Assembly (NCBI GenBank): GCA_036794765.1
Contig: DAIRGB010000002.1
Location: 1-34,522, forward strand
Direction of reading: 5' to 3'
DNA length: 34,522 bases
Source: Patescibacteria group bacterium
GTDB taxonomy: Bacteria > Patescibacteriota > JAHJAL01
Positions 3,200-30,700 of this stretch are shown here, in pieces. The number at the start of each line of letters is the position of its first letter. The first letter of the stretch is position 1. The position numbers and the translations under genes were made by a program. The notes below the pieces were generated by a model. It had not been told where the DNA came from and did not search any database. It was given only the letters and a program-made list of their open reading frames with translations.

Positions 3200-3331
3200 T
3201 GGTGGTAAAAATATTTTGCACTCTTAAAAATTTTACTCATGATAACGCTGTGAATGACGATGGCTAAGAATCTTTTTTGACGCCCGGATCATTTGTAAAA
3301 TTTTTAAGAGTGCAAAATATTTTTACCACCA
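3200..3331 (+). repeat. Hairpin A1: 36-37 bp perfect inverted repeat (3200-3236 / 3295-3331) around a 58-nt loop of family A
   Basis: Arms verified base by base as exact reverse complements. The loop is tcatgataacgctgtgaatgacgatggctaagaatcttttttgacgcccggatcattt. It begins 10 nt after the stop of the VirD4-like gene. Confidence 0.9.
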
Positions 3332-3421
3332 GTTTTGGATTGGATGATTTTTTGTTAGAAGACACTTGCTGCTGGAGTGTCTTTCTTTTTATACTGTAGA
3401 TGTATATTTAATCAAAGGAAT

Positions 3422-3841
3422 ATGTCTTTAAAGACTTATTTTGTGGGGATTGCAATTTCAACTTTTTTGGCGTGGTCGGCGTTTTATTTGACTTTGACCA
3501 ATATTGATCCATTTGTAACAGATAAAGCCGGTATGGCGTCATTTTTTGTCAGTATGTTTTTGGGTATTTTAGGTTTGGTGATTTTGATTTTGATATATTT
3601 TCGTTCACGAGTATATTCGGTGGCAGAGTTGTATGAAAAAATGCCGGTGATTTTGCGTCAGGCTTTTCTGGTTTCTTTTTTTTCGACAGCGGTAATCGGA
3701 ATGCAGGCGATGAGGGTGTTGAGGTGGTGGACGGCTTTGATGTTGATGATTATTGTGATTTTGGTGGAAATGAGTTTTTATATAAATACTTTTAAGTTTG
3801 AGGAAATTAAAGAGTTGGAGAATGATGAGGAAAAAGAGTAG
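3422..3841 (+). CDS. Small polytopic membrane protein (about 4 TM helices), hypothetical
   Basis: ATG 3422 is preceded by aaggaa. Strongly hydrophobic segments throughout. The GTG 3377 start in the ORF track is less likely. Confidence 0.6.
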   Translation: MSLKTYFVGIAISTFLAWSAFYLTLTNIDPFVTDKAGMASFFVSMFLGILGLVILILIYFRSRVYSVAELYEKMPVILRQAFLVSFFSTAVIGMQAMRVLRWWTALMLMIIVILVEMSFYINTFKFEEIKELENDEEKE

Positions 3842-3859
3842 TTATTGTGATTTGCGACC

Positions 3860-3960
3860 GCAAACTTGAATTATGTGAATTTAATATTTTTTAAACTAGA
3901 TGTTGGGATTGATGAGTTTGTAACAGTAAAAAATATTAAATTCACATAATTCAAGTTTGC
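3860..3960 (+). repeat. Hairpin B1: 33 bp perfect inverted repeat (3860-3892 / 3928-3960) around a 35-nt loop of family B
   Basis: Arms verified as exact reverse complements. The loop is aaactagatgttgggattgatgagtttgtaacagt. It begins 19 nt after the stop of the membrane-protein gene. Confidence 0.9.
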
Positions 3961-3986
3961 TACTCAAGTATTTTTGCAGTGTTCTT

Positions 3987-4102
3987 AAATTTTCAATTTA
4001 TAATTTTCAATCAATTTAAAATTACTCAATGTTTCAATGTTTGTAAGTTGAAAATTGGCTTATTAAAAATTGATTGAAAATTAGAAATTATAAATTAAAA
4101 TT
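3987..4102 (+). repeat. Element D1: imperfect inverted repeat built from AT-rich heptads (aattttN / Naaaatt), with a loop containing aaattggctta
   Basis: A 17-bp perfect core (4001-4017 / 4067-4083) has outer heptads paired across a 6-nt bulge. It ends 8 nt before the pheS ATG. Confidence 0.6.
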
Positions 4103-4109
4103 ATTCTAT

Positions 4110-5147
4110 ATGTGGGAAAGATTGGAAAAAATTCGGCAGGATGCTTTGAGTGAGATAAAAAAGATTAAGGAATTGGCGGTTTTGGACGAGACGAAAATAA
4201 AGTGGTTGGGGAGAAAAAGTGAGTTGACGGAATTGCTGAGGGGTTTGGGAAAAATTTCTCCGGAGGAGAGGCCAAAAATTGGACAAAAGACCAATGAGAT
4301 AAAAAGAGAGATTGAGCAAGCTTTGGATAATATTAAAATTGTTTTGCAACAAAAAGAGAATGATCGATCTTTGACGGCCGATTTGTTTGATGTGACGTTA
4401 CCAGCTCGTGATGCTAGAATTGGCCATTTGCATCCTTTGACCAGAACAATGTTGGAATTGGAGGATTATTTTGGTCGGATGGGTTATATGATTTATGAAA
4501 CGGAAAATTTGACCAATGAGTATGAAAATTTTGAAGGGGTGAATATTCCGGCTGATCATCCGGCGCGGGGAATGTGGGATACGTTTTGGGTAAAGGGGGA
4601 AGAGAAAAATAAAGGAAGATTGTGTATGGCGACTCACACTTCAGCTTTTCAAAATCGGATATTGCGGGAAAATAAGCCTCCATATAAGGCAGTGGCGTTG
4701 GGCCGATGTTTTAGACGGGAAGCGACTGATGCTACCCATGAACATACTTTTTACCAAATTGAAGGGGTTATAGTTGATAAAAAATTATCTGTTGGCAATT
4801 TGAAAAAGACTTTGATGGATATGGTGCAGTATATTATTGGTAAAAGAGTGCCGATCAGATTGCGTCCGAGTTATTTTCCGTTTGTGGAACCGGGGTTTGA
4901 GGTGGATGTGCAATGTGTAAAATGTCAGGGTAAAGGTTGTGGAATGTGCAAGGGCAATGGTTGGATCGAGATGTTGGGGGCGGGGATGATTCATCAAAAT
5001 GTGTTTGTGGAAGCAGGTTATAAAAGAAATGAATGGACAGGTTTTGCTTATGGTCCGGGATATGATCGGTTGACGATGATGCGTTATGGTATTACGGATA
5101 TTCGACATTTCTTTAACAGTGAACCGGAATTTATCGAGCAATTTTAA
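4110..5147 (+). CDS. pheS: Phenylalanine--tRNA ligase alpha subunit
   Basis: Class II core motifs (HPLT, FRRE..DATHEHTFYQIEG, FPFVEPGFEVDV, GAGMIH), plus the CxxC...CxxC knuckle seen in Bacillus-type PheS. ATG 4110 is preferred over TTG 4074, which lies inside repeat D1. Confidence 0.95.
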   Translation: MWERLEKIRQDALSEIKKIKELAVLDETKIKWLGRKSELTELLRGLGKISPEERPKIGQKTNEIKREIEQALDNIKIVLQQKENDRSLTADLFDVTLPARDARIGHLHPLTRTMLELEDYFGRMGYMIYETENLTNEYENFEGVNIPADHPARGMWDTFWVKGEEKNKGRLCMATHTSAFQNRILRENKPPYKAVALGRCFRREATDATHEHTFYQIEGVIVDKKLSVGNLKKTLMDMVQYIIGKRVPIRLRPSYFPFVEPGFEVDVQCVKCQGKGCGMCKGNGWIEMLGAGMIHQNVFVEAGYKRNEWTGFAYGPGYDRLTMMRYGITDIRHFFNSEPEFIEQF

Positions 5148-5177
5148 ATTAATAGCGACGTGAAATGTTATTTTGTG

Positions 5178-5304
5178 GTTTGTGTAAAATTTTTTGGTAT
5201 TTAATATTTTGCTCATGATAACGCTGCGAAGGACGATGTCTAAGAACCTTTTTGACGCTCGGATCATTCGCAAAATATTAAATACCAAAAAATTTTACAC
5301 AAAC
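5178..5304 (+). repeat. Hairpin A2: 35 bp perfect inverted repeat (5178-5212 / 5270-5304) around a 57-nt loop of family A
   Basis: Arms verified as exact reverse complements. The loop is tcatgataacgctgcgaaggacgatgtctaagaacctttttgacgctcggatcattc, differing from the A1 loop by 6 substitutions and 1 indel. The arms are unrelated to the A1 arms. Confidence 0.9.
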
Positions 5305-5351
5305 GTATTTTATGAGATTGGTTTAAATAGCAAAATTTTAAGAGGAATTTT

Positions 5352-7787
5352 ATGTTGTACTCATATAATTGGTTGAAAGATTATTTGGATGAAGAGGAAT
5401 TGAAAAAGCAAAAATGGACGGCGGAGAAGATTGGGGAGAGGGTGTCTTTGACCAATTGGGAATGCGATGGGGTGGAGAAGATTAGATTTTCCTGGCCGGG
5501 AGTGGTGATTGGAAAGGTTTTAAAAGTTGATAAACATCCCAATGCCGACAAATTGAGTGTGGCGATGGTGGATGTAAAGAAAGAAAAATTACAAATTGTG
5601 TGTGGGGCCAATAATTTGGCCAAGGGAATGTTGGTGCCGGTGGCTTTGGTGGGGACGAAATTGAAGGAAGGTTTTGAGATCAAAGAAATAGAGATCAGAG
5701 GGGTAAAAAGTACCGGGATGATTTGTGCGGCGGAGGAGCTGGGTTTGGAAGAAAAATCGAGTGGGATTTTGGATTTGGGAAAGGATTTACCGATAGGGGT
5801 GGAATTGGATAAGGCTTTGACTTTTGATGATGAGGCTTTGGAGTTTACTATATTGCCCAATCGTCCGGATGGGATGGCAATGATTGGGATGGCGAAAGAA
5901 ATCGGATTGGCGACGGGAGTAAAGTATTTTGAGCCAAAATTCAAATTTAAAGAAAATAGTGCCAAAAAGATAGACAATATGTTGGAGGTAAATATTAAGG
6001 ATCCGGAAAATTGTCATCGATATTCAGCGCGAGTGATTGATAATGTAAAAATTAAAGAATCGCCGTTGTGGTTAAAAAGAAGGTTGATTGTGGCCGGGAT
6101 GCGGCCGATTAATGCGGTGGTGGATATTACCAATTATGTGATGTTGGAATATGGTCAACCGATGCATGCCTTTGATTATGATTTGCTGATCGGACATAAA
6201 ATTTTTGTCCGAAAGGCCAAAAAAGGTGAGAGGATAGTGACGCTTGATGGTCAGAAAAAGATTTTGAGTGATCATGATTTGATTATTGCTGATGAAAAAA
6301 GACCTTTGGCATTGGCGGGGATTATCGGGGGCGAGGATAGCGGAGTGTTAAATAAAACCAAAACTATTGTTTTGGAAAGTGCGAATTTTGCCAGGCAAGT
6401 GATAAATAATACTAGTCATGAACAGGGTGTGGCGACTGATAGTTCGATCAGGTTTGGGAAGGGATTGCCGGCGAGTTGGACTATTAAAGCTTTAGAAAGA
6501 GCAACGTATTTGATTGTAAAGATTTGTGGTGGCGAGGTGGTGCGAGGAATGATTGATGTGCGTTCAAAGAGATTGTTGAAAAATGAGATTGAATTGGAGT
6601 ATGAATATTTGAATTCATTTTTGGGAGTGGATGTACCAAAGACTGACGTAAAAAGAATATTGAAGGATTTGGGATTTGAAATCGGGAAGTTTGGTGATGA
6701 ATCTTTGTCGGTAACTGTTCCGGATGACAGGATTGACGTGGAAGGTGCCGAAGACTTGATAGAGGAGGTGGGTAGGATTTATGGTTATGACAAAGTGCTG
6801 GAAACGACTTTTTCGATGGCGGTGGATTTGCCGCGGCCGGAAAAAAAGCGTCAATATAGAAATAAAATAATAAATTATTTTTTCAATAAGGGCTGGTCGG
6901 AAGTTTATTCTTATAGTTTTGTGACCGGGAAAAATGTTGTTGATTGGGGCTTTGAATTGGAAAATAGTTTTGAGTTACTCAATCCGTTGGATCAGGATTT
7001 GAAATATTTGCGGCAGTCGTTGGTGGCGGGATTGGTGGAAAAATATCGAAAGTGGTCGAAATATGATGAGGTAGTGCAGATATTTGAATGGGGGAAGGTT
7101 TATTCCAAACTGGATAAAGATAAAGAGAGGACGAAAATAGGACTGGTGTGGGGCGAGGACAAAAATGCAAAGGATTTGTTTTTGGCGGTCAAAGGTTTGG
7201 TTGAGGGTATATTGGCGCTAGGGGGAAGGAAAATCGAGCAGTTTGAATTGAAACGGGCGGAACAGATTGATGAACAGATCGAATATTTACACCCGGTGAA
7301 TAGTTTGGTGATTGTTGATGAGCATGGGCGGATTTTGGGTTCATTTGGTTTGCTACATCCGAGAATATGCGGAAATGAAAAATTGAAAAAAAATTTGGTA
7401 TATGGTGAATTTGATTTGAATAATCTGGTGGAAAATTTTGATGAAATGTATCGATATCAGGAATCGTCAAAATTTCCGGTGTCAAAATTTGACGCGGCGT
7501 TTTTGGTTGATTGGGAAGTGATGGCGAGGGATTTGATAAAAGAAGCCGAAGCGGTGGACAAAGATTTGCTTAAAAAAGTGGAAGTTTTTGATGAGTTTGA
7601 GATTGATGGTTCAAAGTTTAATGTTGAAAGTTTGAAAGGAAATACTGGGCGAAAAAAAAGTGTGGCTTTGCGTTTTTATTGGCAGGCGGAGGATCGGACT
7701 TTGTCGGATGAGGAGGTTAATGGTTTGATGGAAAAAATATATAGTGTGTTGAAAGATAAGTTTGGGGCGTTGTTGAGGGATAGGTGA
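5352..7787 (+). CDS. pheT: Phenylalanine--tRNA ligase beta subunit
   Basis: 811 aa. N-terminal MLYSYNWLKDY, a tRNA-binding (EMAP/OB) domain, B3/4 and B5 regions and a C-terminal FDX-ACB-like end. RBS agagga lies upstream. Confidence 0.95.
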   Translation: MLYSYNWLKDYLDEEELKKQKWTAEKIGERVSLTNWECDGVEKIRFSWPGVVIGKVLKVDKHPNADKLSVAMVDVKKEKLQIVCGANNLAKGMLVPVALVGTKLKEGFEIKEIEIRGVKSTGMICAAEELGLEEKSSGILDLGKDLPIGVELDKALTFDDEALEFTILPNRPDGMAMIGMAKEIGLATGVKYFEPKFKFKENSAKKIDNMLEVNIKDPENCHRYSARVIDNVKIKESPLWLKRRLIVAGMRPINAVVDITNYVMLEYGQPMHAFDYDLLIGHKIFVRKAKKGERIVTLDGQKKILSDHDLIIADEKRPLALAGIIGGEDSGVLNKTKTIVLESANFARQVINNTSHEQGVATDSSIRFGKGLPASWTIKALERATYLIVKICGGEVVRGMIDVRSKRLLKNEIELEYEYLNSFLGVDVPKTDVKRILKDLGFEIGKFGDESLSVTVPDDRIDVEGAEDLIEEVGRIYGYDKVLETTFSMAVDLPRPEKKRQYRNKIINYFFNKGWSEVYSYSFVTGKNVVDWGFELENSFELLNPLDQDLKYLRQSLVAGLVEKYRKWSKYDEVVQIFEWGKVYSKLDKDKERTKIGLVWGEDKNAKDLFLAVKGLVEGILALGGRKIEQFELKRAEQIDEQIEYLHPVNSLVIVDEHGRILGSFGLLHPRICGNEKLKKNLVYGEFDLNNLVENFDEMYRYQESSKFPVSKFDAAFLVDWEVMARDLIKEAEAVDKDLLKKVEVFDEFEIDGSKFNVESLKGNTGRKKSVALRFYWQAEDRTLSDEEVNGLMEKIYSVLKDKFGALLRDR

Positions 7788-7811
7788 AACAATATTTTGT
7801 TGGGATAAATT

Positions 7812-7840
7812 AAATAATCCGGTAACGGGTTATTTTTTTG
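7812..7840 (+). terminator. Intrinsic terminator of pheT
   Basis: aaataatccg-GTAA-cgggttattt stem (one U-G pair, GNRA-type tetraloop) running into a T-run. Confidence 0.7.
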
Positions 7841-8037
7841 TTTATAAATTTGGTTAGAAGTATTGCTTATTTGTTGGATAGATGGTCTGGTATAGTGAAA
7901 ATGCAATATAGGCTTGTTAAAATACTAATTTGAAATTATTATTTATAGTGCCTTGTTATTTAAAAACTTAGTATAAAAATTTTTAAAACTTTGTTTAGAA
8001 TGCAAGGCGAATTCACATGAAGGGTGCGTGATAAAAC

Positions 8038-9120
8038 ATGAAGAAAATATTTTTATTTCTTCAAATTTTTCTGACGGCTGGAGCGCTGTCAATTTTTTTA
8101 TTGAATGGTTGCGGAGGCGGAGGTGGGGGAGGCAGTACAATTGCTGATCCTCAACCGACATTTACTGCGACATTTTCTACTCCTGTTTTTACCTTCACAC
8201 CTATTGCCTCGGCGACGGCTGGGGCAACCATGACTTCAACAGTAGTGTCGGCTACTGTGACCGCTACTGTAACTAAAACGGCGGCTCCGACGGCAATTTC
8301 TCCGTCTGTGACTGGAAAAATTATGGGGATGTTTTTCGGTTCCGCGGTCAGCGGGGCTAGTGTTACCTTGGGTAGTGAATCTGGCACAACGGATACCCAG
8401 GGTAATTTTTTAATTGCCGGAACAACGGGGAGGATGGTGATAAAAATGGGAGGCTATTATGATTATAGTTTTCCAGTCACCTCCTCTACCTTGGAAATTT
8501 TGCTTGTTGGTGCCGATATGAACAACGTTTCATATTCCTCTTATTTTATAAGGGGAAATTCGAAACGTTGGTTAAAAATTCCTAAGTTTCGAATCAATGA
8601 AAATATAACTGCCGCGCAAGCGGCGGTTATTAAAAAAATAATTATTAATGAAGTATCTGCTCTGACCGGGAATTTTATTAAAGTTTCCGAGTCAGAAATT
8701 TTATCAACAGCTTCAACCGAGCCCGAACAGGGCGAGGTTGTTATTTCAATGGATAATGCGGCGACAAATTCGTTTGCAGAGTTATCATACTCTGGCAACG
8801 AAATTGTTGCCGTTAAAATAGTCCTCAGGGACGAGGACTTGTCTTTGAATGAATACTCATGCCGGACTATTCGGCATGAGTTAGGTCATATGATTGGGTT
8901 GAATCACCCCTTTGAAAGTTTGGGGTGGGATTCACCCGATTTACCGATTAGTGTGATGAACTACGTTAACGACAAAAAGAAGTACTCGTTAACGTATAGT
9001 GAGTTTGATTTGAAAACCGGTACACGAAAGTATAGCCGAGGGGCGGGAAACCAGCTTCCGGACTATGATCCAGATACGCCTCTCGGTAAAATAACAAAAA
9101 TAACAAAAATAATATTATAA
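8038..9120 (+). CDS. Secreted lipoprotein, metzincin-type zinc metalloprotease
   Basis: Signal peptide with lipobox LLNGC, then a Gly7 and Thr/Ala-rich linker. A CarboxypepD_reg-like segment (VTLGSESGTTDTQGNFLIAG) follows. Catalytic motif HELGHMIGLNHPF (HExxHxxGxxH) with downstream SVMNY. Confidence 0.75.
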   Translation: MKKIFLFLQIFLTAGALSIFLLNGCGGGGGGGSTIADPQPTFTATFSTPVFTFTPIASATAGATMTSTVVSATVTATVTKTAAPTAISPSVTGKIMGMFFGSAVSGASVTLGSESGTTDTQGNFLIAGTTGRMVIKMGGYYDYSFPVTSSTLEILLVGADMNNVSYSSYFIRGNSKRWLKIPKFRINENITAAQAAVIKKIIINEVSALTGNFIKVSESEILSTASTEPEQGEVVISMDNAATNSFAELSYSGNEIVAVKIVLRDEDLSLNEYSCRTIRHELGHMIGLNHPFESLGWDSPDLPISVMNYVNDKKKYSLTYSEFDLKTGTRKYSRGAGNQLPDYDPDTPLGKITKITKIIL

Positions 9121-9157
9121 ATAAAGATAAATACAAATAGTTTTTGTTATTTTTTTA

Positions 9158-9186
9158 GACCTGGAGAAATCCGGGTCATTTTTTTT
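9158..9186 (+). terminator. Intrinsic terminator of the metalloprotease gene
   Basis: gacctgg-agaaat-ccgggtc stem (one U-G pair) followed by a then T8. Confidence 0.7.
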
Positions 9187-9202
9187 GGGTTATTATACTG
9201 GT

Positions 9203-9208
9203 TTGACA
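9203..9208 (+). promoter_or_regulatory. Possible -35 box TTGACA for the asnS leader transcript
   Basis: Exact TTGACA about 30 nt upstream of the mini-ORF ATG. I could not find a good -10 at canonical spacing. Confidence 0.2.
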
Positions 9209-9238
9209 ATTATTATTAATATTTGTTAGTCTTTAAGT

Positions 9239-9289
9239 ATGAAAACTCAACGAAACAATAATTTTGATGCTAATAATAACTGGGCCTAA
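9239..9289 (+). CDS. Candidate Asn-rich leader peptide MKTQRNNNFDANNNWA (16 codons, 6 Asn) upstream of asnS
   Basis: ATG...TAA mini-ORF read directly from the sequence. There are two runs of three Asn codons. It is followed by overlapping alternative helices and an intrinsic terminator. No clear SD. Confidence 0.3.
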   Translation: MKTQRNNNFDANNNWA

Positions 9290-9328
9290 GGTTGCTGGGT
9301 AAATTGTTGTTTTCTAAAAAAATATTTT

Positions 9329-9355
9329 ACCGGGCGACTTTAGCTCGGTTTTTTT
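9329..9355 (+). terminator. Intrinsic terminator / putative attenuator in the asnS leader
   Basis: accgggc-gacttta-gctcggt stem (7 bp, one G-U) followed by a T-run. It lies downstream of a separate terminator for the preceding gene, so it is not needed for that gene. Confidence 0.55.
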
Positions 9356-9385
9356 GTGACAATTGGAAATTTGTTGGTTGTGGTT

Positions 9386-9491
9386 GGATTTTAATTTGAT
9401 GCAATTATTTTTAACTTTTTAAACAAGAGGTTGGGACCAATAAGAGCTTAACTGTAAAGAAGTTAAAAATAATTGCATCAAATTAAAATCC
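9386..9491 (+). repeat. Hairpin B2: 35 bp inverted repeat (9386-9420 / 9457-9491, one T:G pair) around a family-B loop
   Basis: The loop is aaacaagaggttgggaccaataagagcttaactgt(a). The only non-Watson-Crick pair is t9418:g9459. Confidence 0.9.
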
Positions 9492-9510
9492 TTTAGTAGG
9501 TATTGAGGCC

Positions 9511-9615
9511 GGATTCCAATTGAATATTATTTATTTAACTTTTTTAAACGAAATGTTGGGACCAATAAGAGCTTAACGGTAAAGAAGTTAAATAAATAAT
9601 ATTCAATTGGAATCC
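9511..9615 (+). repeat. Hairpin B3: 35 bp inverted repeat (9511-9545 / 9581-9615, one T:G pair) around a family-B loop, in tandem with B2
   Basis: The loop is aaacgaaatgttgggaccaataagagcttaacggt, with 4/35 differences from B2. The T:G pair (t9542:g9584) is at the position equivalent to that in B2. Confidence 0.9.
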
Positions 9616-9683
9616 TTTACTTGATCATAGATAATTTAATTTAAAAATAATTGGTAAGATAAAATTTTTATGGGGAGAAAAAA

Positions 9684-10976
9684 ATGGAGTATGCTTTGAC
9701 GAAAGATTTGAAGGATTATTTGGATCGAGAGGTGACGATGAAAGGGTGGGTATATAATTTTCGTTCCAGTGGCAAGATTATGTTTTTGCAGTTTCGGGAT
9801 GGTTATGGGTTTGTTCAGGTGGTGGCGAGTGAGGATGAGGTGGGGGCGGAAATTTGGCAAAAATTGGGAGAATTAGCTTTGGAAACTTCGATTGAGCTTA
9901 CGGGACGGGTGAGCAAACACCCAAGGAAAGAGGAATATGAAGTTCAGTTGGTGAGTTTGAAGATAGTGGGGACGAGTGTGGATTATCCGATTGGAAAAAA
10001 AGAACACGGGCCGGATTTTTTGCTGTCCAATCGACATTTGTGGCTGCGTAGTCAAAAACAGTGGGCGATTATGCGGATTAGGAATGTGGTGATCAACGCC
10101 ATTTATGAGTATTTGAATGAGCAGAATTTTATCAAAATAGATGCGCCGGTTTTGACGCCCAATGCTTGTGAGGGGACGACAACTTTGTTTGAATTGGATT
10201 ATTTTGATCAGGGGAAAGCTTATTTGACTCAGTCGGGGCAACTGTATATTGAGGCGGCGATTTTTAGTGTTGGGAGGTGTTTTGATTTTGGGCCGGTGTT
10301 TCGGGCGGAAAAAAGTAAGACCCGACGGCATTTGACGGAATTTTGGATGATGGATGCGGAGGCGGCTTATGTGGAACATACGGAAAGTATGAAAATTCAG
10401 GAAGGGAATGTGCGGCATATTATTCGTCGGGTATTGGAAAAGTGTCAGGTGGAGTTGGTAATTTTGGAGCGAGATATTGAAGCTTTGAAAAAAGCGGATA
10501 ATGATTTCAAAATTATGTCGTATGAAGAGGCGATTGCTTATTTGCAAGCCAATGGCTCGGATATTCAATATGGCGAGGATTTGGGGGCGGATGATGAGAC
10601 GATTTTGACTGCCAAAAGTGAGGTGCCGATTTTTGTTGATCGTTGGCCCAAAGATATCAAAGCGTTTTATATGAAAATCAATCCGGAAAATCCAAAATTG
10701 GTTTTGAACAATGATTTGATTGCGCCTGAGGGGTATGGTGAGGTAATCGGTGGTTCACAAAGGGAAGATAATTATGATTTGTTGTTGGAGCGAATGAAAG
10801 AAGAAAAACTTCCTTTGGATGATTATCAATGGTATTTGGATTTGCGGAAATATGGTAGTGTACCGCATAGTGGTTATGGAATTGGTTTGGAAAGAATGGT
10901 AGCTTGGATGTGCGGGGTGAAACATATTCGGGAGACTATTCCCTTTCCTCGCCTGATTTCGCGAATTTATCCTTAA
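9684..10976 (+). CDS. asnS: Asparagine--tRNA ligase
   Basis: 430 aa. N-terminal OB fold and class IIb core with FRAEKSKTRRHLTEFWMMDAE and GYGIGLERM. RBS ggggag lies upstream. Confidence 0.9.
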   Translation: MEYALTKDLKDYLDREVTMKGWVYNFRSSGKIMFLQFRDGYGFVQVVASEDEVGAEIWQKLGELALETSIELTGRVSKHPRKEEYEVQLVSLKIVGTSVDYPIGKKEHGPDFLLSNRHLWLRSQKQWAIMRIRNVVINAIYEYLNEQNFIKIDAPVLTPNACEGTTTLFELDYFDQGKAYLTQSGQLYIEAAIFSVGRCFDFGPVFRAEKSKTRRHLTEFWMMDAEAAYVEHTESMKIQEGNVRHIIRRVLEKCQVELVILERDIEALKKADNDFKIMSYEEAIAYLQANGSDIQYGEDLGADDETILTAKSEVPIFVDRWPKDIKAFYMKINPENPKLVLNNDLIAPEGYGEVIGGSQREDNYDLLLERMKEEKLPLDDYQWYLDLRKYGSVPHSGYGIGLERMVAWMCGVKHIRETIPFPRLISRIYP

Positions 10977-11000
10977 AATATTTTTTTATAAAGGTGCGGT

Positions 11001-11639
11001 ATGCTGGAAAAATGGGAGATAAGGGAGGGAAAAAAAGAATTGGAGGAGAACGAAAAGGCAAGGATACGGCTAGATAAGGCCAAGGCGATCGAGATTGTGC
11101 ATGGTGTAAAATTAAGGTTGTTTGGCGATTGCCATGATCGAGTTTGTCGGGGGCGTTATGATTTGACGGATGATTTTTTTAGTCGAAAAAATGGTGCGGC
11201 CAGTTTTTCTAAAAATTGTTTTACAGTTGATCCTGCGGCTAGGGGTCCAAAGAGAGTAAATCCGATTTTTGATGGACGTTTGTGTTGGCAAGAGTTGAAA
11301 TATCGGATTGAGGGAGAAGATAGTCATGGAATGAGAATTGAAGGGCAATTTTGGAAAGTAAAGCAGCTGCGGGAAAAGATATTGCAGTATATTGGATGGA
11401 AATCGGAAAAAATCAGGGAAATACATCCGGATATTTTTTATTCAGTGATATTGAATTATGGTAATTTGACAGAGGCTTTTCGGGATATTGGACAAAAATA
11501 CAAGATAAAATGGACCAATTATGATGAGATAATCGAAAAATTGGTGGCGGCGAATTTGTCGGATTATTTTATTGGTTGGATTACGGGTTCGTGTATAGGA
11601 AAAATCGAACGGCGGAAGAAGAGCAAAAAAACAACCTGA
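11001..11639 (+). CDS. Hypothetical protein (no domain recognised)
   Basis: 212-aa ORF co-directional with asnS, 24 nt downstream, ending in a terminator. No motif I can name. Confidence 0.5.
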   Translation: MLEKWEIREGKKELEENEKARIRLDKAKAIEIVHGVKLRLFGDCHDRVCRGRYDLTDDFFSRKNGAASFSKNCFTVDPAARGPKRVNPIFDGRLCWQELKYRIEGEDSHGMRIEGQFWKVKQLREKILQYIGWKSEKIREIHPDIFYSVILNYGNLTEAFRDIGQKYKIKWTNYDEIIEKLVAANLSDYFIGWITGSCIGKIERRKKSKKTT

Positions 11640-19611: not shown

Positions 19612-19675
19612 AATTTTTTAATTTTTAATTTTTAATTTTTAAAACAAATTGGCTTAAACATTAAAAATTAAAAAC
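19612..19675 (+). repeat. Element D2: four aattttt heptads plus a 14-bp AT hairpin (19629-19642 / 19661-19674), with a loop containing aaattggcttaaaca
   Basis: Co-linear with D1 on the + strand (T-rich heptads, then aaattggctta, then ttaaaaatt). Lies just upstream of the glgP start codon. Confidence 0.6.
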
Positions 19676-22189: not shown

Positions 22190-22198
22190 AAAATTTAA

Positions 22199-23434: not shown

Positions 23435-23465
23435 GGAGTAGTAATATTTGGATAATGGTAAATAT

Positions 23466-23762: not shown

Positions 23763-23837
23763 GGTATTTTTATTAATATTTAAGTAAAAATTACTTGTGG
23801 AAAAATTGGGGATAAGTTTTATATGATTTGAATAGTC

Positions 23838-24602
23838 TTATTGGTTGCTGTCTTTGATTAAACTTGAAGTGGATATTTCTTGTCTGTTCCCGTTTTTGAT
23901 ATGGGGAACAACTTCATCTTTTTGGATAATTCCATCTCGCAGTCGAATAATTCTTTTGGCACAATTAGCAATATCTTCTTCATGGGTGACCATGACGATG
24001 GTGTTGCCGGATTGATTTATTTTTTCAAATAGATTGATAATTTCGACTTCGGTTTTTGAATCCAGGTTGCCGGTTGGTTCGTCAGCGAAAATAAGATCCG
24101 GCTGGTTGACCAGGGCGCGAGCGATAGCTACGCGTTGTTGTTGACCTCCTGATAGTTCATTGGGGAGGTGGTATAACCTGTCGGAAAGCCCGACGCTTTC
24201 TAGGGCAGTCAATGCTTTGTTTCGTCTCTCTTTGGCAGGAACACCGGCGTAAATCAGAGGTAATTCAACATTGTCTAAGGCAGAAGTGCGTGCCAGAAGA
24301 TTGTATGATTGGAAAATAAAACCGATTTTTTGGTTTCTAATGGAAGCCAGATCGTCATCGGAAAGATTATTGGTATTGTGTCCCAAAAAATTGTATGTGC
24401 CGCCTGATGCTCGGTCCAAGAAACCAATGATATTCATCAATGTTGATTTTCCTGAGCCGGAAGGACCCATAATGGCGACATATTCACCTTTATAAATATT
24501 TAGGTTTATTCCTTTTAAAACGTTTATTGTTAGTTTGTCCAGGTAATAATTTTTGGTAATGTTGTCCAATTCGATAACCGGGACTGGTGTTTGATTGTTC
24601 AT
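23838..24602 (-). CDS. ABC transporter ATP-binding protein, MacB/LolD type
   Basis: Walker [10 protein letters not shown], signature [15 protein letters not shown], Walker [13 protein letters not shown]. Confidence 0.95.
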
Positions 24603-24628
24603 AAATAGATATAGGTGAGGGATTTATT

Positions 24629-26521
24629 TTATTTTTTAAGAATAATTACTTCTTCTCCTTGTTTTAGACCATTGATAATTTCGGTTAGGCTGTTGCCGCG
24701 TAGGCCGATTTCGACTGGTTTGGTTGCTGTTGTATTTGTTTTTTGATCTTGTATAAATTCGATGACATTTTGTCCATTTTCTTTTTTGATTGATTGATTG
24801 GGTACGGCCAAAGCATTTTCTTTTTCAGCGGTAATAATTTCAATATTGGCGGTCATACCCGGTTTTATTTTTTCATCCTGACTTTCCAAGATTACTTTGG
24901 TTTTGTAATATACAACGCCTTGAATGATAGTGGCGGCGGGGTCGATTTTGACAACTGTACCATCATATTGTTTGTCTTTGGAAAAGGCATCAAAGTCGAT
25001 TAGGGTTTTATCACCGATTTTTATTTTGTCGATATCGGTTTCGGCGATGTCGGCATTGATTTCGAATTTAGCATTGGATTGGAGTTGGATGGCGGGATTG
25101 GCAGAGGTGCTTTGTTCTCCCAGACTAACATTGATTTGGGTAATTGTTCCATCGATAGGGGCGACGATTTGAAGATTGGAAAGTTGTGCTTCTATAACTT
25201 TACTGGCAGCAGTAGCTTGGGCGACTTGGGCCTGGGCGACAGCAATGGCAGCGGCGGTAGGACCGGCTTTTTTTAGTTTGAGTTGTTCTTGTTGAGTTTT
25301 TAGTTGATCTTCAGCGTTTTTAACTTGTTCTTGAGAGTTGTTTAGTTTGGTTTCGTTACCAATTTTGGTAGTAACAATATTTTCTTCAGCAGTTTTGGTT
25401 TGATTTTCTTATGATATGACTTGGTTTTTGGCGTTGTCGATAGAGGTCTGATTACTCATTTTGGTGTTCTCGATGGCATTGGAAAGATTTTGGGCACTGG
25501 TCAGATTGGAATTGGTAGTAGCTTCATTGCTGGATTGCCGACTTTTGAGAGTGGCCAAATCGGAAGCGGAAAAGAAATATTTGGCATTTTCGGAGTATAA
25601 AAAGAAATTGGTATTGTTTAGAATTTGACTGACAGTATTGATGTAGGCGATGGTGTCGTCGGTGGCTTTTTGGGTGTCGATTTCCGTTTTGGTGGTTTTA
25701 GCAAGATTATAGCTAGATAACGCGGTTTGATACTTGAATTTGGAGTCTGAAAGCAAATTATCACAGTTGGCAGTGCGGATAAAATCAATATTTTTGAAAA
25801 TGTTGTACCAGGTGTTGTTGTCAAATATTTCCTCGATATTGGCCTGGGCTGACAATTCGCTGATGAGAATAATATTGATTTGGTTTAGATTGCTGTCGAT
25901 AGTGTTAATCAGATTTTGTGATGTTTGGTTATTGATATTGGTAAGATTGGTGCGTGATTCGTTGAGTAGTTTTTGAATATTATTTAGATTAGTTTGGGCT
26001 TGTTGGTTGCTATTTTCGATTTCCTTTTTGGTTAATTCGTGATTATTTTTAGCGTTATCAAGAGTATTTTTGGCGTTTTGCACGTTCACTTCTTGAATTG
26101 AAATTTCTTCGGGGCGGTTACCTTCTTGAACTTGCTTGAGTTGAGCTTGAGCAACGGCGATGGAAGCGCGAGATTGGTTTAGTTGGCTGGTTATTTCATT
26201 TGACTCCAAACTAGCCAGAACCGTACCTTTTTTCACAGAATCACCAACTTTGACGTCAATGTTTTCTACGTTACCGGCACCTTTGAAGTTTAAGTTTAAT
26301 TCGTCAGCTGGTTTGATGGTGCCTGTTACTTCTACGCTTTGGCGAATATTTTGAATCTTCGCTGCTTCGGTAATGTAAGGTGATTCTTGAGGTTTGGAAT
26401 ATTGCCAATAGCCGATACCGATAACGGCTATTACTATGATGATTATGAGCCAGAGCCACCACCAGGATTTTTTCCTGGGTTTGAGAAAGTCGTTTGCTTG
26501 ATTATTTTGATCTTGAGCCAT
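24629..26521 (-). pseudogene. HlyD/MacA-family membrane-fusion adaptor interrupted by one in-frame TAA (25409-25411)
   Basis: My manual minus-strand translation shows the same frame continuing straight through the TAA. Upstream are the TM helix, lipoyl half 1 and a long coiled coil. Downstream are more coiled coil, lipoyl half 2 (IVAPIDGTITQINVSLGE), the beta-barrel and the membrane-proximal domain. There is no start codon or RBS just after the stop. Confidence 0.8.
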
Positions 26522-26591
26522 AATTAGGTAATTTAACGATAATATAAATTAATGTTGTGTAAGGAAAATATTTTTGATGCAGATTAAGGGA

Positions 26592-26837
26592 TTATATAGA
26601 ATGTTTTTTGGTTTGTGATTTTTCCAGAGTAGCTAGTTCATCGCTAATTGTCTTTAACAATTGACTGATCTCGTTTGTCTTAATTAATACTATACCGTGA
26701 AAATGCTCATTTTTGAACACGATAAATTGTTCACCGGTTTTAATGGACAATTCTTTGCGAAGTTTGGCTGGGATTACGATTTGGCCTTTGGGACCGACGG
26801 TGGTGGTGCCATAACATTGGGGTTTTTTTGGTAGCAT
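26592..26837 (-). CDS. AbrB/MazE/SpoVT-family DNA-binding protein, first gene of the export operon
   Basis: N-terminal swapped-hairpin motif TTTVGPKGQIVIPAKLRKELSIKTGE. Confidence 0.75.
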   Translation of the reverse strand: MLPKKPQCYGTTTVGPKGQIVIPAKLRKELSIKTGEQFIVFKNEHFHGIVLIKTNEISQLLKTISDELATLEKSQTKKHSI

Positions 26838-26880
26838 AGATATTGTGTTTTAGAAAAGTAAGAAAAGTTATACTTTTTAT

Positions 26881-26909
26881 ATAGTAATTGAAAAAGGTCT
26901 ATTGGTCAA
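26881..26909 (-). promoter_or_regulatory. Sigma-70-like promoter: TTGACC, 17-nt spacer, TACTAT (read on the minus strand)
   Basis: -35 is the complement of 26904-26909 and -10 the complement of 26881-26886, with an exact 17-nt spacer. It sits about 45 nt upstream of the AbrB-like start and just downstream of a terminator hairpin. Confidence 0.45.
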
Positions 26910-26911
26910 CA

Positions 26912-26945
26912 AAAAAAGAAAATTATAAAAATAATTTTCTTTTTT
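26912..26945. terminator. AT-rich 15-bp palindromic hairpin, probable terminator of the upstream minus-strand gene
   Basis: aaaaaagaaaattat-aaaa-ataattttctttttt. The T-run lies within or after the stem on the minus strand. Confidence 0.4.
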
Positions 26946-26967
26946 AAATAATAATTGATGTGCTTAG

Positions 26968-27390
26968 TTAGCTCGTTTTTCTGAATCTTTCTCGATATTG
27001 TCTGGTTGTAACAATTAGTCCATCTTTGTTTTGTCTACTTTCTCGTGTTGAGAATATCTGATCTTGTTGCTTGAAGCCTTCAATATGATCTTCGTTTTTC
27101 CAGATCAGATTAGAGGAAGGTTTTTGAATTTTTTTTTGTGATTTTTTTTCTTCCATTGATTTTTTTTCTTCCATTTCTTCGATGTTTTGTTTCCATTGTT
27201 CGATTCTTTTAAGAGTTAGTTTCACTTCGGGTGTTGGAGTTTTTTTGGCGTTACTATTTTTTTTGTCTTCGATTGCTTTTTCGCACTGTTTGCGATATTT
27301 TTCAAGGTATTTTTTGTGTGCATTTTCGATAATTTCTTTGCTGCTAGGGTTTGTTGAACTAACGATATTTTTTCTTTCTAAAGTGTCCAT
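26968..27390 (-). CDS. Hypothetical Lys/Glu-rich protein
   Basis: 140-aa ORF, highly charged, with a tandem MEEKKS repeat. No domain recognised. Confidence 0.45.
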   Translation of the reverse strand: MDTLERKNIVSSTNPSSKEIIENAHKKYLEKYRKQCEKAIEDKKNSNAKKTPTPEVKLTLKRIEQWKQNIEEMEEKKSMEEKKSQKKIQKPSSNLIWKNEDHIEGFKQQDQIFSTRESRQNKDGLIVTTRQYRERFRKTS

Positions 27391-27464
27391 GATTTGTGTA
27401 AGTAGATTTTAAACTAAAATAAGTAAACAATGTTTTTATAACATTAAATTGTTTATTAGTCAAC

Positions 27465-28229
27465 CTAGAGATTTTGATTGAGTTTTATATATAATAAAAA
27501 TTCTTTATTGCCTTTGGGGCCGAGGAGGGGGCTGGTGGTTTCGTTTATGATGGAAAAATTGTTTTCTTGACAAAATTGCCGGAAGTTTTTTTTGACGAGT
27601 TCGTGAATTTTGGGGTTTTTGACAACACCTTTACGTAAGTTTTTTGGTCCGGCCTCAAATTGGGGTTTCAATAAGCAAACAATTTTTAATTTATAATTTT
27701 TAATTTTTAAACAATTTTGGTTGAGATATTTGGAGAAGATTTTTTTTAGATGAGTCAATATTGTGATTATGGAGATAAAGGAGGTGTCGATGACTACAAG
27801 ATCGATTTTTTCAGGTAAGTTGTCCCAATGGCGGAAGTTGGTTTGTTCCAGACTGATTACTCGAGGATTGATTTTTAATTTGTCGGCGAGTTGGTGGGTG
27901 CCGACGTCGAGCGCAAAGACTTTTTTGGCGTCATTTTGTAGTAAGCAGTCGGTGAAACCACCGGTAGAAGCACCAATATCCAAACAAACGTAATTTTTGG
28001 GCTTGATTTTGAATTCTTTAAAAGCGTGTTCGAGTTTGAGACCGCCGCGGCTGACGTATTTTAGTGGTTGGTTAATGGTGATAATTGAGTTTTGATCAAC
28101 TGTTTGGGAAGGCGAAATCGCTTTTTGTTGGTTAACAAAAACAAGACCCAAGCGAATGGTTAATTGGGCTTGGGATCTTGTAGATGATAGTTGGCGCGAA
28201 ACTAATTCGAGATCAAGGCGTTGTTTCAT
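27465..28229 (-). CDS. tlyA: TlyA-family rRNA (cytidine-2'-O)-methyltransferase
   Basis: N-terminal S4-like region, YVSRGGLKL, CLDIGASTGGFTDCLL (SAM site), DVGTHQL, DTSFIS and LLKPQFEAG. Confidence 0.9.
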   Translation of the reverse strand: MKQRLDLELVSRQLSSTRSQAQLTIRLGLVFVNQQKAISPSQTVDQNSIITINQPLKYVSRGGLKLEHAFKEFKIKPKNYVCLDIGASTGGFTDCLLQNDAKKVFALDVGTHQLADKLKINPRVISLEQTNFRHWDNLPEKIDLVVIDTSFISIITILTHLKKIFSKYLNQNCLKIKNYKLKIVCLLKPQFEAGPKNLRKGVVKNPKIHELVKKNFRQFCQENNFSIINETTSPLLGPKGNKEFLLYIKLNQNL

Positions 28230-29542
28230 TTGGTTTTTTTGATTGAGACGTAGTTTGAGGAGTAAGGGTTAGTAGAATTGGTTAAATAAAATTTTATCTT
28301 GAAGTTGCAGGATGAAGTTTTTTCCAATTCTTCTTTAAATTCTTGATTAACAATTTCCATAATATTGAATGGTGCTTGAGGGGTGGCTTGGAATGATTTT
28401 TTGATTGTTTCTTGGGCTTTGCCATTTTTGTCGAGAAGAATAATTTCTGTCCAGCCGGCATAATCTGTATATAGTATATCGGTGTTATTTAGATATGGAT
28501 CAAAACCGTTGTTGATATTGATCTTTCTGGCTGAAATAGTTTGGTTTTCAACTGTTGATGTATTGTTTGGGGTGTAGTTGGAATATTGAGTGGAATATTG
28601 AGTGGAATATTGTTGGGAGGGGTATTGGTTGGTGTTGTTTACTTGATAGGAGTTGGCGGGAGGAGTGAGGGGTTTGAGGGCGGGAAGGTTTCTAAGAGCG
28701 GCTTCAAAAGCAAGTTGTTTGGCGGTGTGAAGATATATTGTATTTTTTGTGTTTTCATCAACGTATTGTTCGCCGTCTGATCCGTATTGGCTGTATCCGG
28801 TAGAAAAATGATTGGTAGAAAAACCAACATTGAAGCTGTTGTAATTGTCTTTATTGCAGATTGGGCTTTCTCCGTAGATTTGGGCGATCAAGTTACCAAA
28901 TTTGTCATATACTTTGATGCCAACGCGGTATATATATGATTGGTTGGAATCAGCCGTTCCAAAATTTATCGAAAAATTATTGAAACTTATTGAGGGATTG
29001 ATGTTGCGACTGTTGTTATTCAGAGTAATCCAACCGCAATCTTCGGAATATATATTGTAGTCAGGATTGCTAGAACTGGACATATTGTCCGGCATAACCC
29101 AGTTTACTCCTGATGGGATATTATTTATTTTGACTGAAGGGCCATCATATTTTTGTTCCAAAATATTTATCTTTTCACTGTGATTGGGAAAATCTTTGGG
29201 AATAAATTGATTGCTGGAAACAGTGGTGTTTTGTTTAAGATATGTATTATTGGTGTAATCGGGATTTTTGGCAAATGATGGTGTTGGAGAGATGAATTGT
29301 GATGCGATAATTGCGGTTACGACAGCTTTTTTTAATCCGAGAGATTCAATGACGGGGTATTTTTTTTCGAGGTTGTTCAAGTAAGTACAGGTATTACCAA
29401 TATGTTTATCAAGAAAACTTTTGGGAAATTGTTCGTTAAGTTTAGCGTCTAAATTGATAATTTCTTTGGGTGAAGAAGGGTTGTTATTAAAATCTCTTGT
29501 ATTGAGTTTGCCTTCGAATTTTTTTTGGGGGAAATTTTCCAT
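28226..29542 (-). CDS. Hypothetical Asn/Ser/Thr/Tyr-rich protein with one predicted TM segment
   Basis: 438-aa ORF. Its stop overlaps the tlyA start (ATGA). Contains a QYSTQYSTQYS repeat encoded by a 12-nt tandem repeat. Confidence 0.55.
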   Translation of the reverse strand: MENFPQKKFEGKLNTRDFNNNPSSPKEIINLDAKLNEQFPKSFLDKHIGNTCTYLNNLEKKYPVIESLGLKKAVVTAIIASQFISPTPSFAKNPDYTNNTYLKQNTTVSSNQFIPKDFPNHSEKINILEQKYDGPSVKINNIPSGVNWVMPDNMSSSSNPDYNIYSEDCGWITLNNNSRNINPSISFNNFSINFGTADSNQSYIYRVGIKVYDKFGNLIAQIYGESPICNKDNYNSFNVGFSTNHFSTGYSQYGSDGEQYVDENTKNTIYLHTAKQLAFEAALRNLPALKPLTPPANSYQVNNTNQYPSQQYSTQYSTQYSNYTPNNTSTVENQTISARKININNGFDPYLNNTDILYTDYAGWTEIILLDKNGKAQETIKKSFQATPQAPFNIMEIVNQEFKEELEKTSSCNFKIKFYLTNSTNPYSSNYVSIKKTK

Positions 29543-29636
29543 ACTTGAATGTATTTATTAATTTTTTTGGTTAAATTATTGTCTTTTTTATATCATAAAA
29601 ATGCTGATAAATCAAGGTTTATGGCGATTTTGTGAG

Positions 29637-29760
29637 ATTTTTTTATTACAATAAATATTTTTTTGCCATTTTTTAGACTCGGACAATATCTTTATGGAAG
29701 AGACTATTGAACTTAAACAAGTAAAAAATGGCAAAAAAATATTTATTGTAATAAAAAAAT
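29637..29760 (+). repeat. Hairpin E: 37-38 bp perfect inverted repeat (29638-29674 / 29723-29759) around a 48-nt loop
   Basis: Arms verified as exact reverse complements. The loop is agactcggacaatatctttatggaagagactattgaacttaaacaagt. It lies in the divergent intergenic region upstream of yebC. Confidence 0.9.
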
Positions 29761-29851
29761 TATTGTTAGTAAAAGGACAAGAGGTAGTTTTGGCAAAAAA
29801 TGGGGGTTTGGATTATAATTTAGATGATATTTACATATTAACGAAAAAAAT

Positions 29852-30580
29852 ATGTCCGGACATAGTAAATGGGCGAATATTAAACAAAGAAAGGGTGTGC
29901 AAGATGCCAAAAAAGCTGTTGTGTTTACTAAATATGCCAAGATGATTACAGTAGCGGCAAAAGACGGTGGCGGTGATCCGGAGACAAATTTTAAGTTAAA
30001 ATTGGCGATTGATAAAGCCAAACAGGTAAATATGCCATCGGATAATATTAAACGGGCGATTGAAAGAGGGGCTGGTGGTGGAAAGGATGATTTGCAGATT
30101 GAAGAAGTTGTTTATGAGGTTTATGGTCCGGAGGGGTCAGCGGCTTTAATAACTGTTTTTACTGATAATAAAAATCGTTCTTTGGGCGACCTAAAAGGTG
30201 TTTTTGCGAAACTAGGTGGATCTTTGGGAGGGATGGGGACGGTAAATTGGATGTTTGAGAAAAAGGGAGTGATTGAGGTTAAATCAGAGAGCATAAAAGA
30301 TATTGATGAAATAACTTTGGAAGCGATAGATGCCGGAGCAGAAGATGTAGAGCCGGACGAAGGAATTGTTTATTTCTATTGTCAGATAAATGACTTGATG
30401 AGAATGAAAGAATTTTTGGATGGCAAGGGGGTTGTGATCGAGTCGGCGGGAATGGTGAGTTTGCCGAAAAATACGGTTAAAATAGAAGGTGAAGAAAAGA
30501 AGGAAAAAGTGATAAATTGGGTGCAGACTTTGGAGGATTTGGATGATGTGGACAAGGTGGAGACGAATGTGGAGTTGTAG
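29852..30580 (+). CDS. yebC: YebC/PmpR-family transcriptional regulator
   Basis: MSGHSKWANIKQRKG N-terminus and full-length family-typical sequence. Confidence 0.93.
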   Translation: MSGHSKWANIKQRKGVQDAKKAVVFTKYAKMITVAAKDGGGDPETNFKLKLAIDKAKQVNMPSDNIKRAIERGAGGGKDDLQIEEVVYEVYGPEGSAALITVFTDNKNRSLGDLKGVFAKLGGSLGGMGTVNWMFEKKGVIEVKSESIKDIDEITLEAIDAGAEDVEPDEGIVYFYCQINDLMRMKEFLDGKGVVIESAGMVSLPKNTVKIEGEEKKEKVINWVQTLEDLDDVDKVETNVEL

Positions 30581-30585
30581 GGGTT

Positions 30586-30700
30586 ATTTCAAGTCCGAGG
30601 ATAAATTTTATATTTTTTAAACTTGATCAAAGGTTAGAACCAATTATTTTTGATCTTCGGGACAGGTAAAAAATATAAAATTTATCCTCGGATTTGAAAT
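30586..30700 (+). repeat. Hairpin C: 33 bp inverted repeat (30586-30618 / 30668-30700, one G:T pair) around a 49-nt B-related loop
   Basis: The loop is aaacttgatcaaaggttagaaccaattatttttgatcttcgggacaggt, with an internal 7-bp helix gatcaaa/tttgatc. The only mismatch is g30593:t30693. It begins 6 nt after the yebC stop. Confidence 0.9.

Follow-up and report, generated by a model that had tools for sequence, protein, structure and literature searches.

Intergenic hairpins with conserved loops and drifting, perfectly paired stems in a small clade of Patescibacteria

Many intergenic spacers in a small clade of Patescibacteria (candidate phyla radiation, CPR) carry hairpins of 100–130 bp in which the loop is kept while the long, perfect stem drifts in sequence. 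We studied seven of them on contig DAIRGB010000002.1 of assembly GCA_036794765.1, a stretch of 34,522 nucleotides from an uncultured Patescibacteria bacterium that we call the window, together with copies in related genomes. The seven hairpins, A1, A2, B1, B2, B3, C and E (Table 1), are real and, within the searches that we made, undescribed; we class them among the bacterial palindromic repeat elements and see a substantial chance that they represent a new type of mobile element. Our favoured interpretation, to which we give slightly less than an even chance, is a lineage-restricted family of mobile hairpin DNA with recognition through the loop; the G-rich strand would be the one that folds, probably while it is single-stranded DNA (ssDNA) at the replication fork, and template switching would keep the arms perfect.

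An inverted-repeat scan recovered all seven hairpins of the original prediction, which had been made from the sequence of the window. Their Watson-Crick runs span 26–39 bp, with B2, B3 and C reaching 35–36 bp through one G:T pair each, and their loops measure 33–58 nt. The folding z-scores lie between -9.9 and -12.8, and for each of the seven none of 200 shuffles folds as well. A uniform scan for hairpins (stem of at least 24 bp, at least 85% paired, loop of at most 100 nt) yields seven in the 34.5 kb of the window versus eight in 1.29 Mb of unrelated bacterial loci, a roughly 30-fold higher density. The same scan found none in 58 kb of three related Patescibacteria loci, L100–L102, which match the window in GC content and skew (|skew| 0.27–0.37), showing that composition is not the cause of the hairpins. 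Because the elements were found again in independent ENA, NCBI, Logan and JGI assemblies, an assembly artefact is excluded. They occur at a density of about one element per 5–9 kb.

Table 1. Coordinates of the hairpins, canonical terminators, partial copies and F-type hairpins
Feature	Family or type	Location	Strand	Description
A1	A family	window 3200..3331	+	5' arm 3200-3236, loop 3237-3294 (58 nt), 3' arm 3295-3331; 37-bp Watson-Crick run
B1	B family	window 3860..3960	+	34-bp perfect stem, 33-nt loop
A2	A family	window 5178..5304	+	pheS-pheT spacer; 35-bp perfect stem, 57-nt loop
B2	B family	window 9386..9491	+	32-bp Watson-Crick run; G:T 9418:9459; first of tandem pair
B3	B family	window 9511..9615	+	31-bp Watson-Crick run; G:T 9542:9584; tandem paralogue of B2
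E		window 29637..29760	+	39-bp perfect stem, 46-nt loop; between divergent genes
C	C family	window 30585..30701	+	yebC-ruvC spacer; 26-bp run, 35-bp stem with G:T 30593:30693; 47-nt loop
Terminator	canonical	window 3358-3384		short GC stem and U-tract
Terminator	canonical	window 7812-7835		short GC stem and U-tract
Terminator	canonical	window 9158-9177		short GC stem and U-tract
Terminator	canonical	window 9329-9349		short GC stem and U-tract
Partial copy	C family	L085 10878-10936		begins at 5'-arm T-run
Partial copy	C family	L094 9317-9470		begins at 5'-arm T-run
Partial copy	C family	L095 ~11000-11070		begins at 5'-arm T-run
Partial copy	C family	L096 9516-9726		begins at 5'-arm T-run
F hairpin	F family	window 3985-4099		imperfect hairpin
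F hairpin	F family	window 19615-19674		imperfect hairpin
F hairpin	F family	L003 9831-9966		imperfect hairpin
F hairpin	F family	L003 15280-15430		imperfect hairpin
F hairpin	F family	L094 9060-9145		imperfect hairpin
F hairpin	F family	L096 1092-1257		imperfect hairpin
F hairpin	F family	L096 9930-9993		imperfect hairpin

Two ENA assemblies carry contigs that match the window, one identical and one with 99.9% identity (L002). The closest named genome is a metagenome-assembled genome, GCA_049322675 ("Patescibacteria group bacterium", here MAG180), with about 90% DNA identity, of which the loci L003, L085 and L096 were compared. The genes of the window are housekeeping genes (recF, dciA, a gene for a TraD/VirD4-like ATPase, pheS, pheT, asnS, gnd, zwf, macB, yebC, ruvC and glgA). 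In MAG180, dnaA and dnaN lie directly 5' of recF; the presumed origin is therefore a few kb away from the start of the window, in which + is the leading strand. The GC skew of the window is +0.13 to +0.57 per 1-kb segment, with a sole exception of +0.03 at 12–13 kb, and it is positive independently of the gene strand. An extreme one-strand skew was also seen in L003, L085–L087 and L094–L102, hairpin-free relatives included (|skew| 0.27–0.41).

The loops are constrained, and at orthologous sites purifying selection acts on them. The window and MAG180 differ at 26.1% of the four-fold degenerate sites (428/1641), compared with about 10% of the positions in the loops of A1, A2, E and C (21/209). 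Across genomes and sites the C loops are 81–96% identical, whereas over longer times the distal arms of the C copies decay to chance level (0.46–0.58, against a 99th percentile of 0.62 in the null). This is the inverse pattern that the original prediction had described, with a constrained loop and a stem that is free in sequence as long as it pairs. At the yebC-ruvC site C is present in four genomes with loops that are 87–96% identical and arms that differ yet pair.

The stems change at a roughly neutral rate, and they do so in a mirrored fashion. In 141 stem columns aligned between the window and MAG180 we count 15 mirrored substitutions and one mirrored 1-nt indel, versus about four unmirrored changes. 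A1 differs from its MAG180 orthologue by nine mirrored arm substitutions and a mirrored 1-nt indel; the arms of E are identical in the two genomes and its loop has four changes. Between the tandem paralogues B2 and B3 we count four mirrored substitutions and two mirrored indels, of 3 nt and 2 nt; the arms show no unmirrored change, and the loops differ at four positions. Additionally, RNAalifold detects compensatory double changes in 22 of 48 pairs in the C family and in 19 of 35 pairs in the A family. Since mirrored indels are beyond the reach of independent mutation, one arm must have been copied from the other, and this arm-to-arm copying points to a mechanism for maintaining the helix of the kind that had been postulated for these hairpins. 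Template switching between inverted-repeat arms is a documented process that makes them alike (PMC7202029, PMC8604942), and we infer that it keeps the arms complementary in these hairpins.

That the arms share no alignable sequence, as had been stated before, goes too far. It does not hold for the loop-proximal 6–8 bp, which all families have in common, nor for recent orthologues and paralogues, whose arms are clearly homologous (A1, A2, C and E versus MAG180; B2/B3; C86/C95). The arm identity amounts to 0.75 for the pair Cw/Cm and to 0.71 for C86/C95, which belong to the same genome. That recent copies have common arms shows that arms and loop move together in the copying of an element.

Sequence relations group the hairpins into families. 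A1 and A2 share a loop of 57–58 nt, TCATGATAACGCTG...ACGCYCGGATCATT, with about 88% identity, and the loops of B2/B3 and B1/B2 agree at about 31/35 and 24/35 positions, values that reproduce the earlier estimates. B1–B3, C and E have the closing junction TTTTTTA-RA-C...G-TAAAAAA in common, and judged by this motif B, C and E appear to be one superfamily; B and C also share the apical GGTTGGGACCAAT and GGTTRRRACCAAT. In all families the top of the stem is alike, with 6–8 loop-proximal bp made of a T-run in the 5' arm and an A-run in the 3' arm and a C-G closure. A covariance model, R1, made from six C copies scores these copies at 77–124 bits (window C, 124) and B1–B3 and E at 40–46 bits on the + strand versus 31–38 bits on the - strand, which makes B and E weak but directional relatives of C. 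Inside the loops the pairing is less uniform. In A1 an inner 5-bp helix, ATGAT/ATCAT, prolongs the pairing to 3243/3288, and in the A-family copy of L094 this helix becomes GCGAA/TTCGC. The C loop has two alternative inner helices, each about 93% paired, neither of which shows a change on both sides or exceeds shuffle controls.

Further relatives of the A family were seen in GCA_016294905 (L094 5038-5145; L086 18317-18423). In L005 (7176-7344), from a relative with 66% PheS identity, a 48-bp perfect stem carries a 73-nt loop with GTGTGAATG...CTAATAAT that resembles the middle of the A loop, making it a possible distant member judged by its sequence. Two tandem copies in L089 (4284-4516), with an A-like loop GCTCATAAAC...GATATTCGCT, are probable distant members.

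The elements are gained and lost, and their distribution is patchy. E is found in the window and in MAG180, and the same spacer is without it in L087 (YebC 93% identical) and L086 (YebC 81%); being missing from these two outgroups, E is a derived insertion. B1 is missing from the orthologous spacer in both MAG180 (L003) and GCA_016294905, which shows that it was gained in the lineage of the window. A1 is found in MAG180 and missing from GCA_016294905, and C is missing from the yebC-ruvC spacer of genomes more distant than the four that carry it. Sites are also re-occupied by different families. The pheS-pheT spacer has an A element in the window and in MAG180 and a C element in GCA_016294905, while the site upstream of asnS has B2 and B3 in the window and a different, imperfect F-type hairpin in MAG180. 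The elements thus recur in relatives and are polymorphic for presence there, in line with what the original prediction had led us to expect.

Four loci have partial tandem copies behind a full element. They consist of loop, 3' arm and about 25 nt of flank, always in the same polarity, which would fit slippage, re-initiation or another process with a direction. No arm sequence recurs in the flanks or in the empty sites, and similarity to the 120-nt flanks is found only where a tandem copy adjoins; the earlier suggestion that an inserting element copies flanking DNA into an inverted duplication is therefore not borne out. Guide-like or spacer-like arms had also been proposed, and here too matches are lacking, as in about 1.6 Mb of sequence examined no arm matches elsewhere with one 16-nt exception. 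The arms simply drift. The exception is an exact, nearly palindromic match (GCAAAATATTTTTAC-type) between the 3' arm of A1 and L003 9805-9820, the empty B1 site in MAG180; it could be the remnant of an arm, or a short palindrome that serves as a preferred target.

At 10/10 independent sites with a recognisable family, the G-rich (leading) strand carries the loop (two-sided binomial, ~0.002), which agrees with the earlier proposal that the folded species derives from the + strand. That this species, RNA or else ssDNA, is co-oriented with the flanking genes had further been proposed, and our data do not support co-orientation as a pointer to RNA. The two genes beside the femAB-murE spacer are encoded on the C-rich strand (Pfam), and a C element on the G-rich strand is antisense to both. 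This arrangement is found in two genomes, GCA_016294905 (stem 32/33) and MAG180 (stem 35/35), with conserved loops, unrelated arms and tandem partial copies at each. E, in turn, sits between two predicted divergent promoters, TTGATT-17-TATAAA and TTGGCA-17-GATTATAAT (yebC), both of which are kept in relatives without E. These few sites favour a rule tied to replication and argue against a sense-strand mRNA module. The deeper relatives L098 and L100–L102, to which we turned for the same femAB-murE comparison, have no elements at all. In their orientation the elements behave like a class that is locked to the replication strand.

A mechanism can be proposed on this basis. The superfamily would comprise the A family and the B/C/E family, and the unit would be the whole hairpin with its two AT-rich arms, conserved stem top and family-specific loop of 33–58 nt. 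Sequence specificity would reside in loop and stem top, presumably recognised by a putative trans-acting protein that mobilises the element, and the remaining stem would need pairing only. The G-rich strand, as the template of lagging-strand synthesis, becomes transiently single-stranded in each replication, and the hairpin would most likely fold and be acted upon as ssDNA at the fork, which would fix its orientation by replication and not by transcription. By intrastrand template switching, as in quasipalindrome correction, one arm would be recopied from the other, so that a change or indel in one arm is mirrored and the stem can drift near-neutrally while the helix stays perfect. One may go further and speculate about a previously undescribed class of ssDNA mobile elements with ends set by structure, namely by the foot of the hairpin, with a putative enzyme that reads loop and stem top on the lagging-strand template and with re-templated arms; this we consider possible and rather unlikely.

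Several observations weigh against mobile hairpin DNA that folds at the fork. In about 290 kb of clade loci we found no transposase, HUH endonuclease, Y1_Tnp domain or other partner gene, and the proteins of the window (DciA, the TraD/VirD4-like ATPase, aminoacyl-tRNA synthetases, pentose-phosphate enzymes, MacB and others) include no candidate partner. The filled and empty sites that we compared show no defined insertion footprint. The target duplication that the original prediction had proposed to look for did not turn up, as no clear direct repeat distinguishes the filled from the empty sites of B1, E and A1, where diverged flanks blur the junctions. Moreover, the loops are constrained over long times at orthologous sites (C at yebC-ruvC, to 81% YebC identity); inert selfish DNA rarely behaves in this way, and a function where they sit is suggested. 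The predicted inner-loop helices are G:U-rich and would suit RNA over DNA, with covariation supporting neither. Finally, at 8/10 sites the element also runs in the direction of both neighbours, which an RNA module would do too, and the split between replication and transcription hangs on one site, in two genomes, and on E with its predicted promoters.

These last points belong to the most serious rival, a cis-acting structured RNA. The hairpins would then form in + strand mRNA, with the double-stranded stem as an RNase III-type processing site or a barrier to 3'-exonucleases and the loop bound by a protein; the expression of neighbouring cistrons would be uncoupled or tuned, and copies would spread by duplication. 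We regard this as a real but minor possibility. The eight co-directional sites are in transcribed positions. Among them, A1 follows the stop codon of the TraD-like gene (3190) and precedes the canonical terminator of the same gene, which is conserved; A2 and C95 lie between pheS and pheT, C between yebC and ruvC, and the pair B2/B3 in the asnS leader, between the leader terminator and asnS. Purifying selection on the loops and the strong covariation of the stems fit an RNA, as does the better folding of the + strand loops of B1–B3 and C compared with their complements. All wobbles in the stems of the window are G:T on the + strand, which had been taken to point to + strand RNA (or ssDNA); the skew (+0.3 to +0.5), however, implies C-to-T change on this strand, and such asymmetry is expected from strand-biased mutation alone, so that the pattern does not discriminate between the readings. 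An RNA module does not account for the C element that is antisense to femAB and murE in two genomes with its loop and perfect stem kept, nor for E, which lies 5' of both predicted promoters. Perfect stems of 31–39 bp with mirrored indels exceed what selection for RNA pairing yields, no Rfam family matches, and covariation is not seen in the inner-loop helices.

The strict link to the G-rich strand, the density and the loops kept at orthologous sites would also fit a replication-coupled ssDNA signal of the host on the lagging-strand template that is not selfish, for instance a priming or primosome-assembly site comparable to the single-strand origins of rolling-circle plasmids and phages. From the extreme GC skew one may suspect that the G-rich strand is single-stranded for long periods, and origins of the ssoA type likewise have variable stems, conserved loop motifs and a strict dependence on orientation. 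We nevertheless find this reading improbable, as relatives with the same skew and composition have no such hairpin in 58 kb, hence no general requirement exists, and as individual copies come and go and one family takes the place of another; the CS-6 motif of ssoA (TAGCGT) was not found on the relevant strand.

[quoted passage not shown] The hairpins are indeed intergenic, often start just after stop codons and lie in AT-rich, low-complexity surroundings, and they give weak Rfam matches to generic long hairpins. But the arms are the variable part, the 30-fold enrichment over background disappears in composition-matched relatives, and canonical terminators exist separately. The AT-rich stems of 31–39 bp with loops of 33–58 nt have no T-run on their 3' side, in agreement with the earlier remark that a terminator U-tract is lacking. 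For integron attC sites, the R''/R' motifs (RYYYAAC / GTTRRRY) at the stem base and the bulges of extrahelical bases are missing, and the neighbours are housekeeping genes (pheS, pheT, asnS, yebC, ruvC). MITEs were rejected because the terminal inverted repeats are not conserved within a family, only very recent copies having common arms, and REP or REPIN sequences because there is no conserved GTAG-type head; the outer arm ends vary (TGGTGG, GCAAAC, GTTTGT, GGATTT, ATTTTT, TATTTC). Against PATEs of the IS200/IS605 type speak the single long hairpin of each element and the lack of a common sequence 5' of the elements.

Other candidates were considered for the loops and discarded. The sequence GGTTGGGACC resembles a T-box core, a resemblance that no T-box match backs. 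A 19-codon minus-strand open reading frame (ORF) in the A1 loop is broken by a 1-nt indel in A2, which speaks against coding loops. The promoter-like TTGACG (A) and TTGATC (C) are without a conserved -10 box across copies. The C loop contains AACTTGAT, similar to the nick site CTTG/ATA of phiX174 and pC194; the B loops lack it and it is part of a predicted helix, and we take it to be a coincidence.

Searches for known relatives remained negative. The whole window gave no match at the gathering thresholds of Rfam 15, and E-value scans of the seven loci gave sub-threshold matches only, to generic long hairpins (plant miRNA precursors, WsnRNA46, and Phe_leader on the wrong strand). A pattern for the A loop produced two chance coding matches in viral contigs and none in JGI metagenome contigs, a pattern for the B loop none in viral contigs, and C and A1 had no BLAST match in collections of phages and plasmids. 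Among the articles listed by our literature searches, none described such elements.

The closest known systems are the RAYT-associated REPINs and the IS200/IS605 elements with their single-strand transposition, and the defining features of both fail here. According to Bertels and Rainey in 2011, REPINs and REP sequences are reportedly mobilised by RAYT, a Y1 HUH transposase. REPINs are thought to act as ssDNA hairpins with a single trans-acting enzyme. Like our elements they are intergenic non-coding hairpins of about 100 nt with two inverted arms, many copies per genome and pairing that is kept by compensatory change. In REPINs, however, the arms (REP, with the GTAG head) are conserved and recognised and the spacer varies, while here it is loop and stem top that are kept and the arms that drift; the roughly 290 kb of clade loci contained no RAYT. 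MITEs (Correia/NEMIS, RPE, ERIC, Nezha) are comparable in being small, non-autonomous, intergenic, able to fold as hairpins, polymorphic for insertion and restricted to lineages. They differ by family-conserved terminal inverted repeats and target-site duplications, neither of which is seen here, and we know of no report of a strict orientation of MITEs relative to replication.

IS200/IS605 elements (IS608, ISDra2) and PATEs would share with the present elements the recognition of ssDNA hairpins on the lagging-strand template, which gives an orientation bias relative to replication (PMC5027513, PMC6006769). They produce no target duplication, and none was seen here. They have two short subterminal hairpins of conserved sequence, one per end, and defined tetra- or pentanucleotide targets, whereas we see a single long hairpin with a conserved loop and no such targets. 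An attC site, too, is a folded single strand that is read by structure and not by stem sequence, is strand-specific and lies just after stop codons, but its stem base carries conserved R''/R' sites, it has extrahelical bases, its terminal loop varies and it sits in cassette arrays beside intI; here the loop is conserved and the neighbours are housekeeping genes. The ssoA-type origins have long imperfect hairpins whose stems vary between plasmids, with conserved loop motifs, one orientation and ssDNA as the active form. Their variable stems, conserved loops and single orientation resemble our elements; they are plasmid-borne, occur once per replicon and carry RSB and CS-6 motifs, while our elements are chromosomal and multi-copy and these motifs were not found. 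Quasipalindrome-templated mutation (PMC7202029, PMC8604942) accounts for mirrored substitutions and indels and for perfect arms without selection on each pair. It is a mutational process, not an element, and leaves the loop conservation, the spread and the fixed orientation unexplained. Inversion of the spacer is another of its possible outcomes, and we saw no inverted loop.

If our favoured interpretation of loop-recognised mobile DNA is true, a family with freely drifting perfect stems would imply a different logic of recognition and cleavage and probably an unknown enzyme. To our knowledge, the known bacterial repeat elements (REP/REPIN, MITEs, attC, IS200/IS605 ends) are all recognised via paired or terminal sequences. 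The present elements would be the mirror image of the REPIN and MITE logic, in ultra-small CPR genomes with an extreme replication strand bias, to which the strict link with the G-rich strand connects them. The hairpins are also an unusually clean natural record of arm-to-arm templated copying over measurable divergence, which bears on the persistence of palindromes. They fill about 2–3% of CPR genomes that are streamlined and believed to undergo strong reduction, which would make them either very effective parasites or something useful.

A separate family of imperfect hairpins, F, accompanies the elements. It is characterised by short repeats of the AATTTCCAATTT/TTTTCAATTT type and an AAATTGGCTTA/AAAGGCTCAATTT motif, and its members tend to adjoin gene starts on the 5' side (pheS, murE, a glycogen-phosphorylase-like gene). 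A small conserved hairpin with a TAGTATA loop was seen 5' of murE in three genomes (L094 9150-9180; L096, reverse complement, ~9880-9910; the L098 spacer), where it overlaps a promoter-like site, TTTACA-17-TATACT, on the murE strand.

Among the neighbouring genes, a DciA helicase-loader homologue (551-853) and a TraD/VirD4-like coupling ATPase of 751 aa (935-3190) follow right after recF in an origin-proximal position, with A1 directly 3' of the ATPase gene. The gene at 9684-10976 passes the NCBIfam equivalog model for asparagine--tRNA ligase and is asnS. Upstream of it lies a candidate ribosome-mediated attenuator (9186-9356), whose 16-codon ORF (~9240-9290, MKTQRNNNFDANNNWA) has six Asn codons, comes after a TTGACA promoter-like box and is flanked by the canonical terminators at 9158-9177 and 9329-9349; the region is kept in MAG180. 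The membrane-fusion gene of the MacB operon (YknX/CzcB-like, 24629-26521, minus strand) is split into ORFs of 86 and 370 aa in the window and intact, with 630 aa, in the 99.9% identical strain L002 and in MAG180; 9 of the 11 single-nucleotide differences between the window and L002 fall within this gene (25409-25457, 26066-26089).

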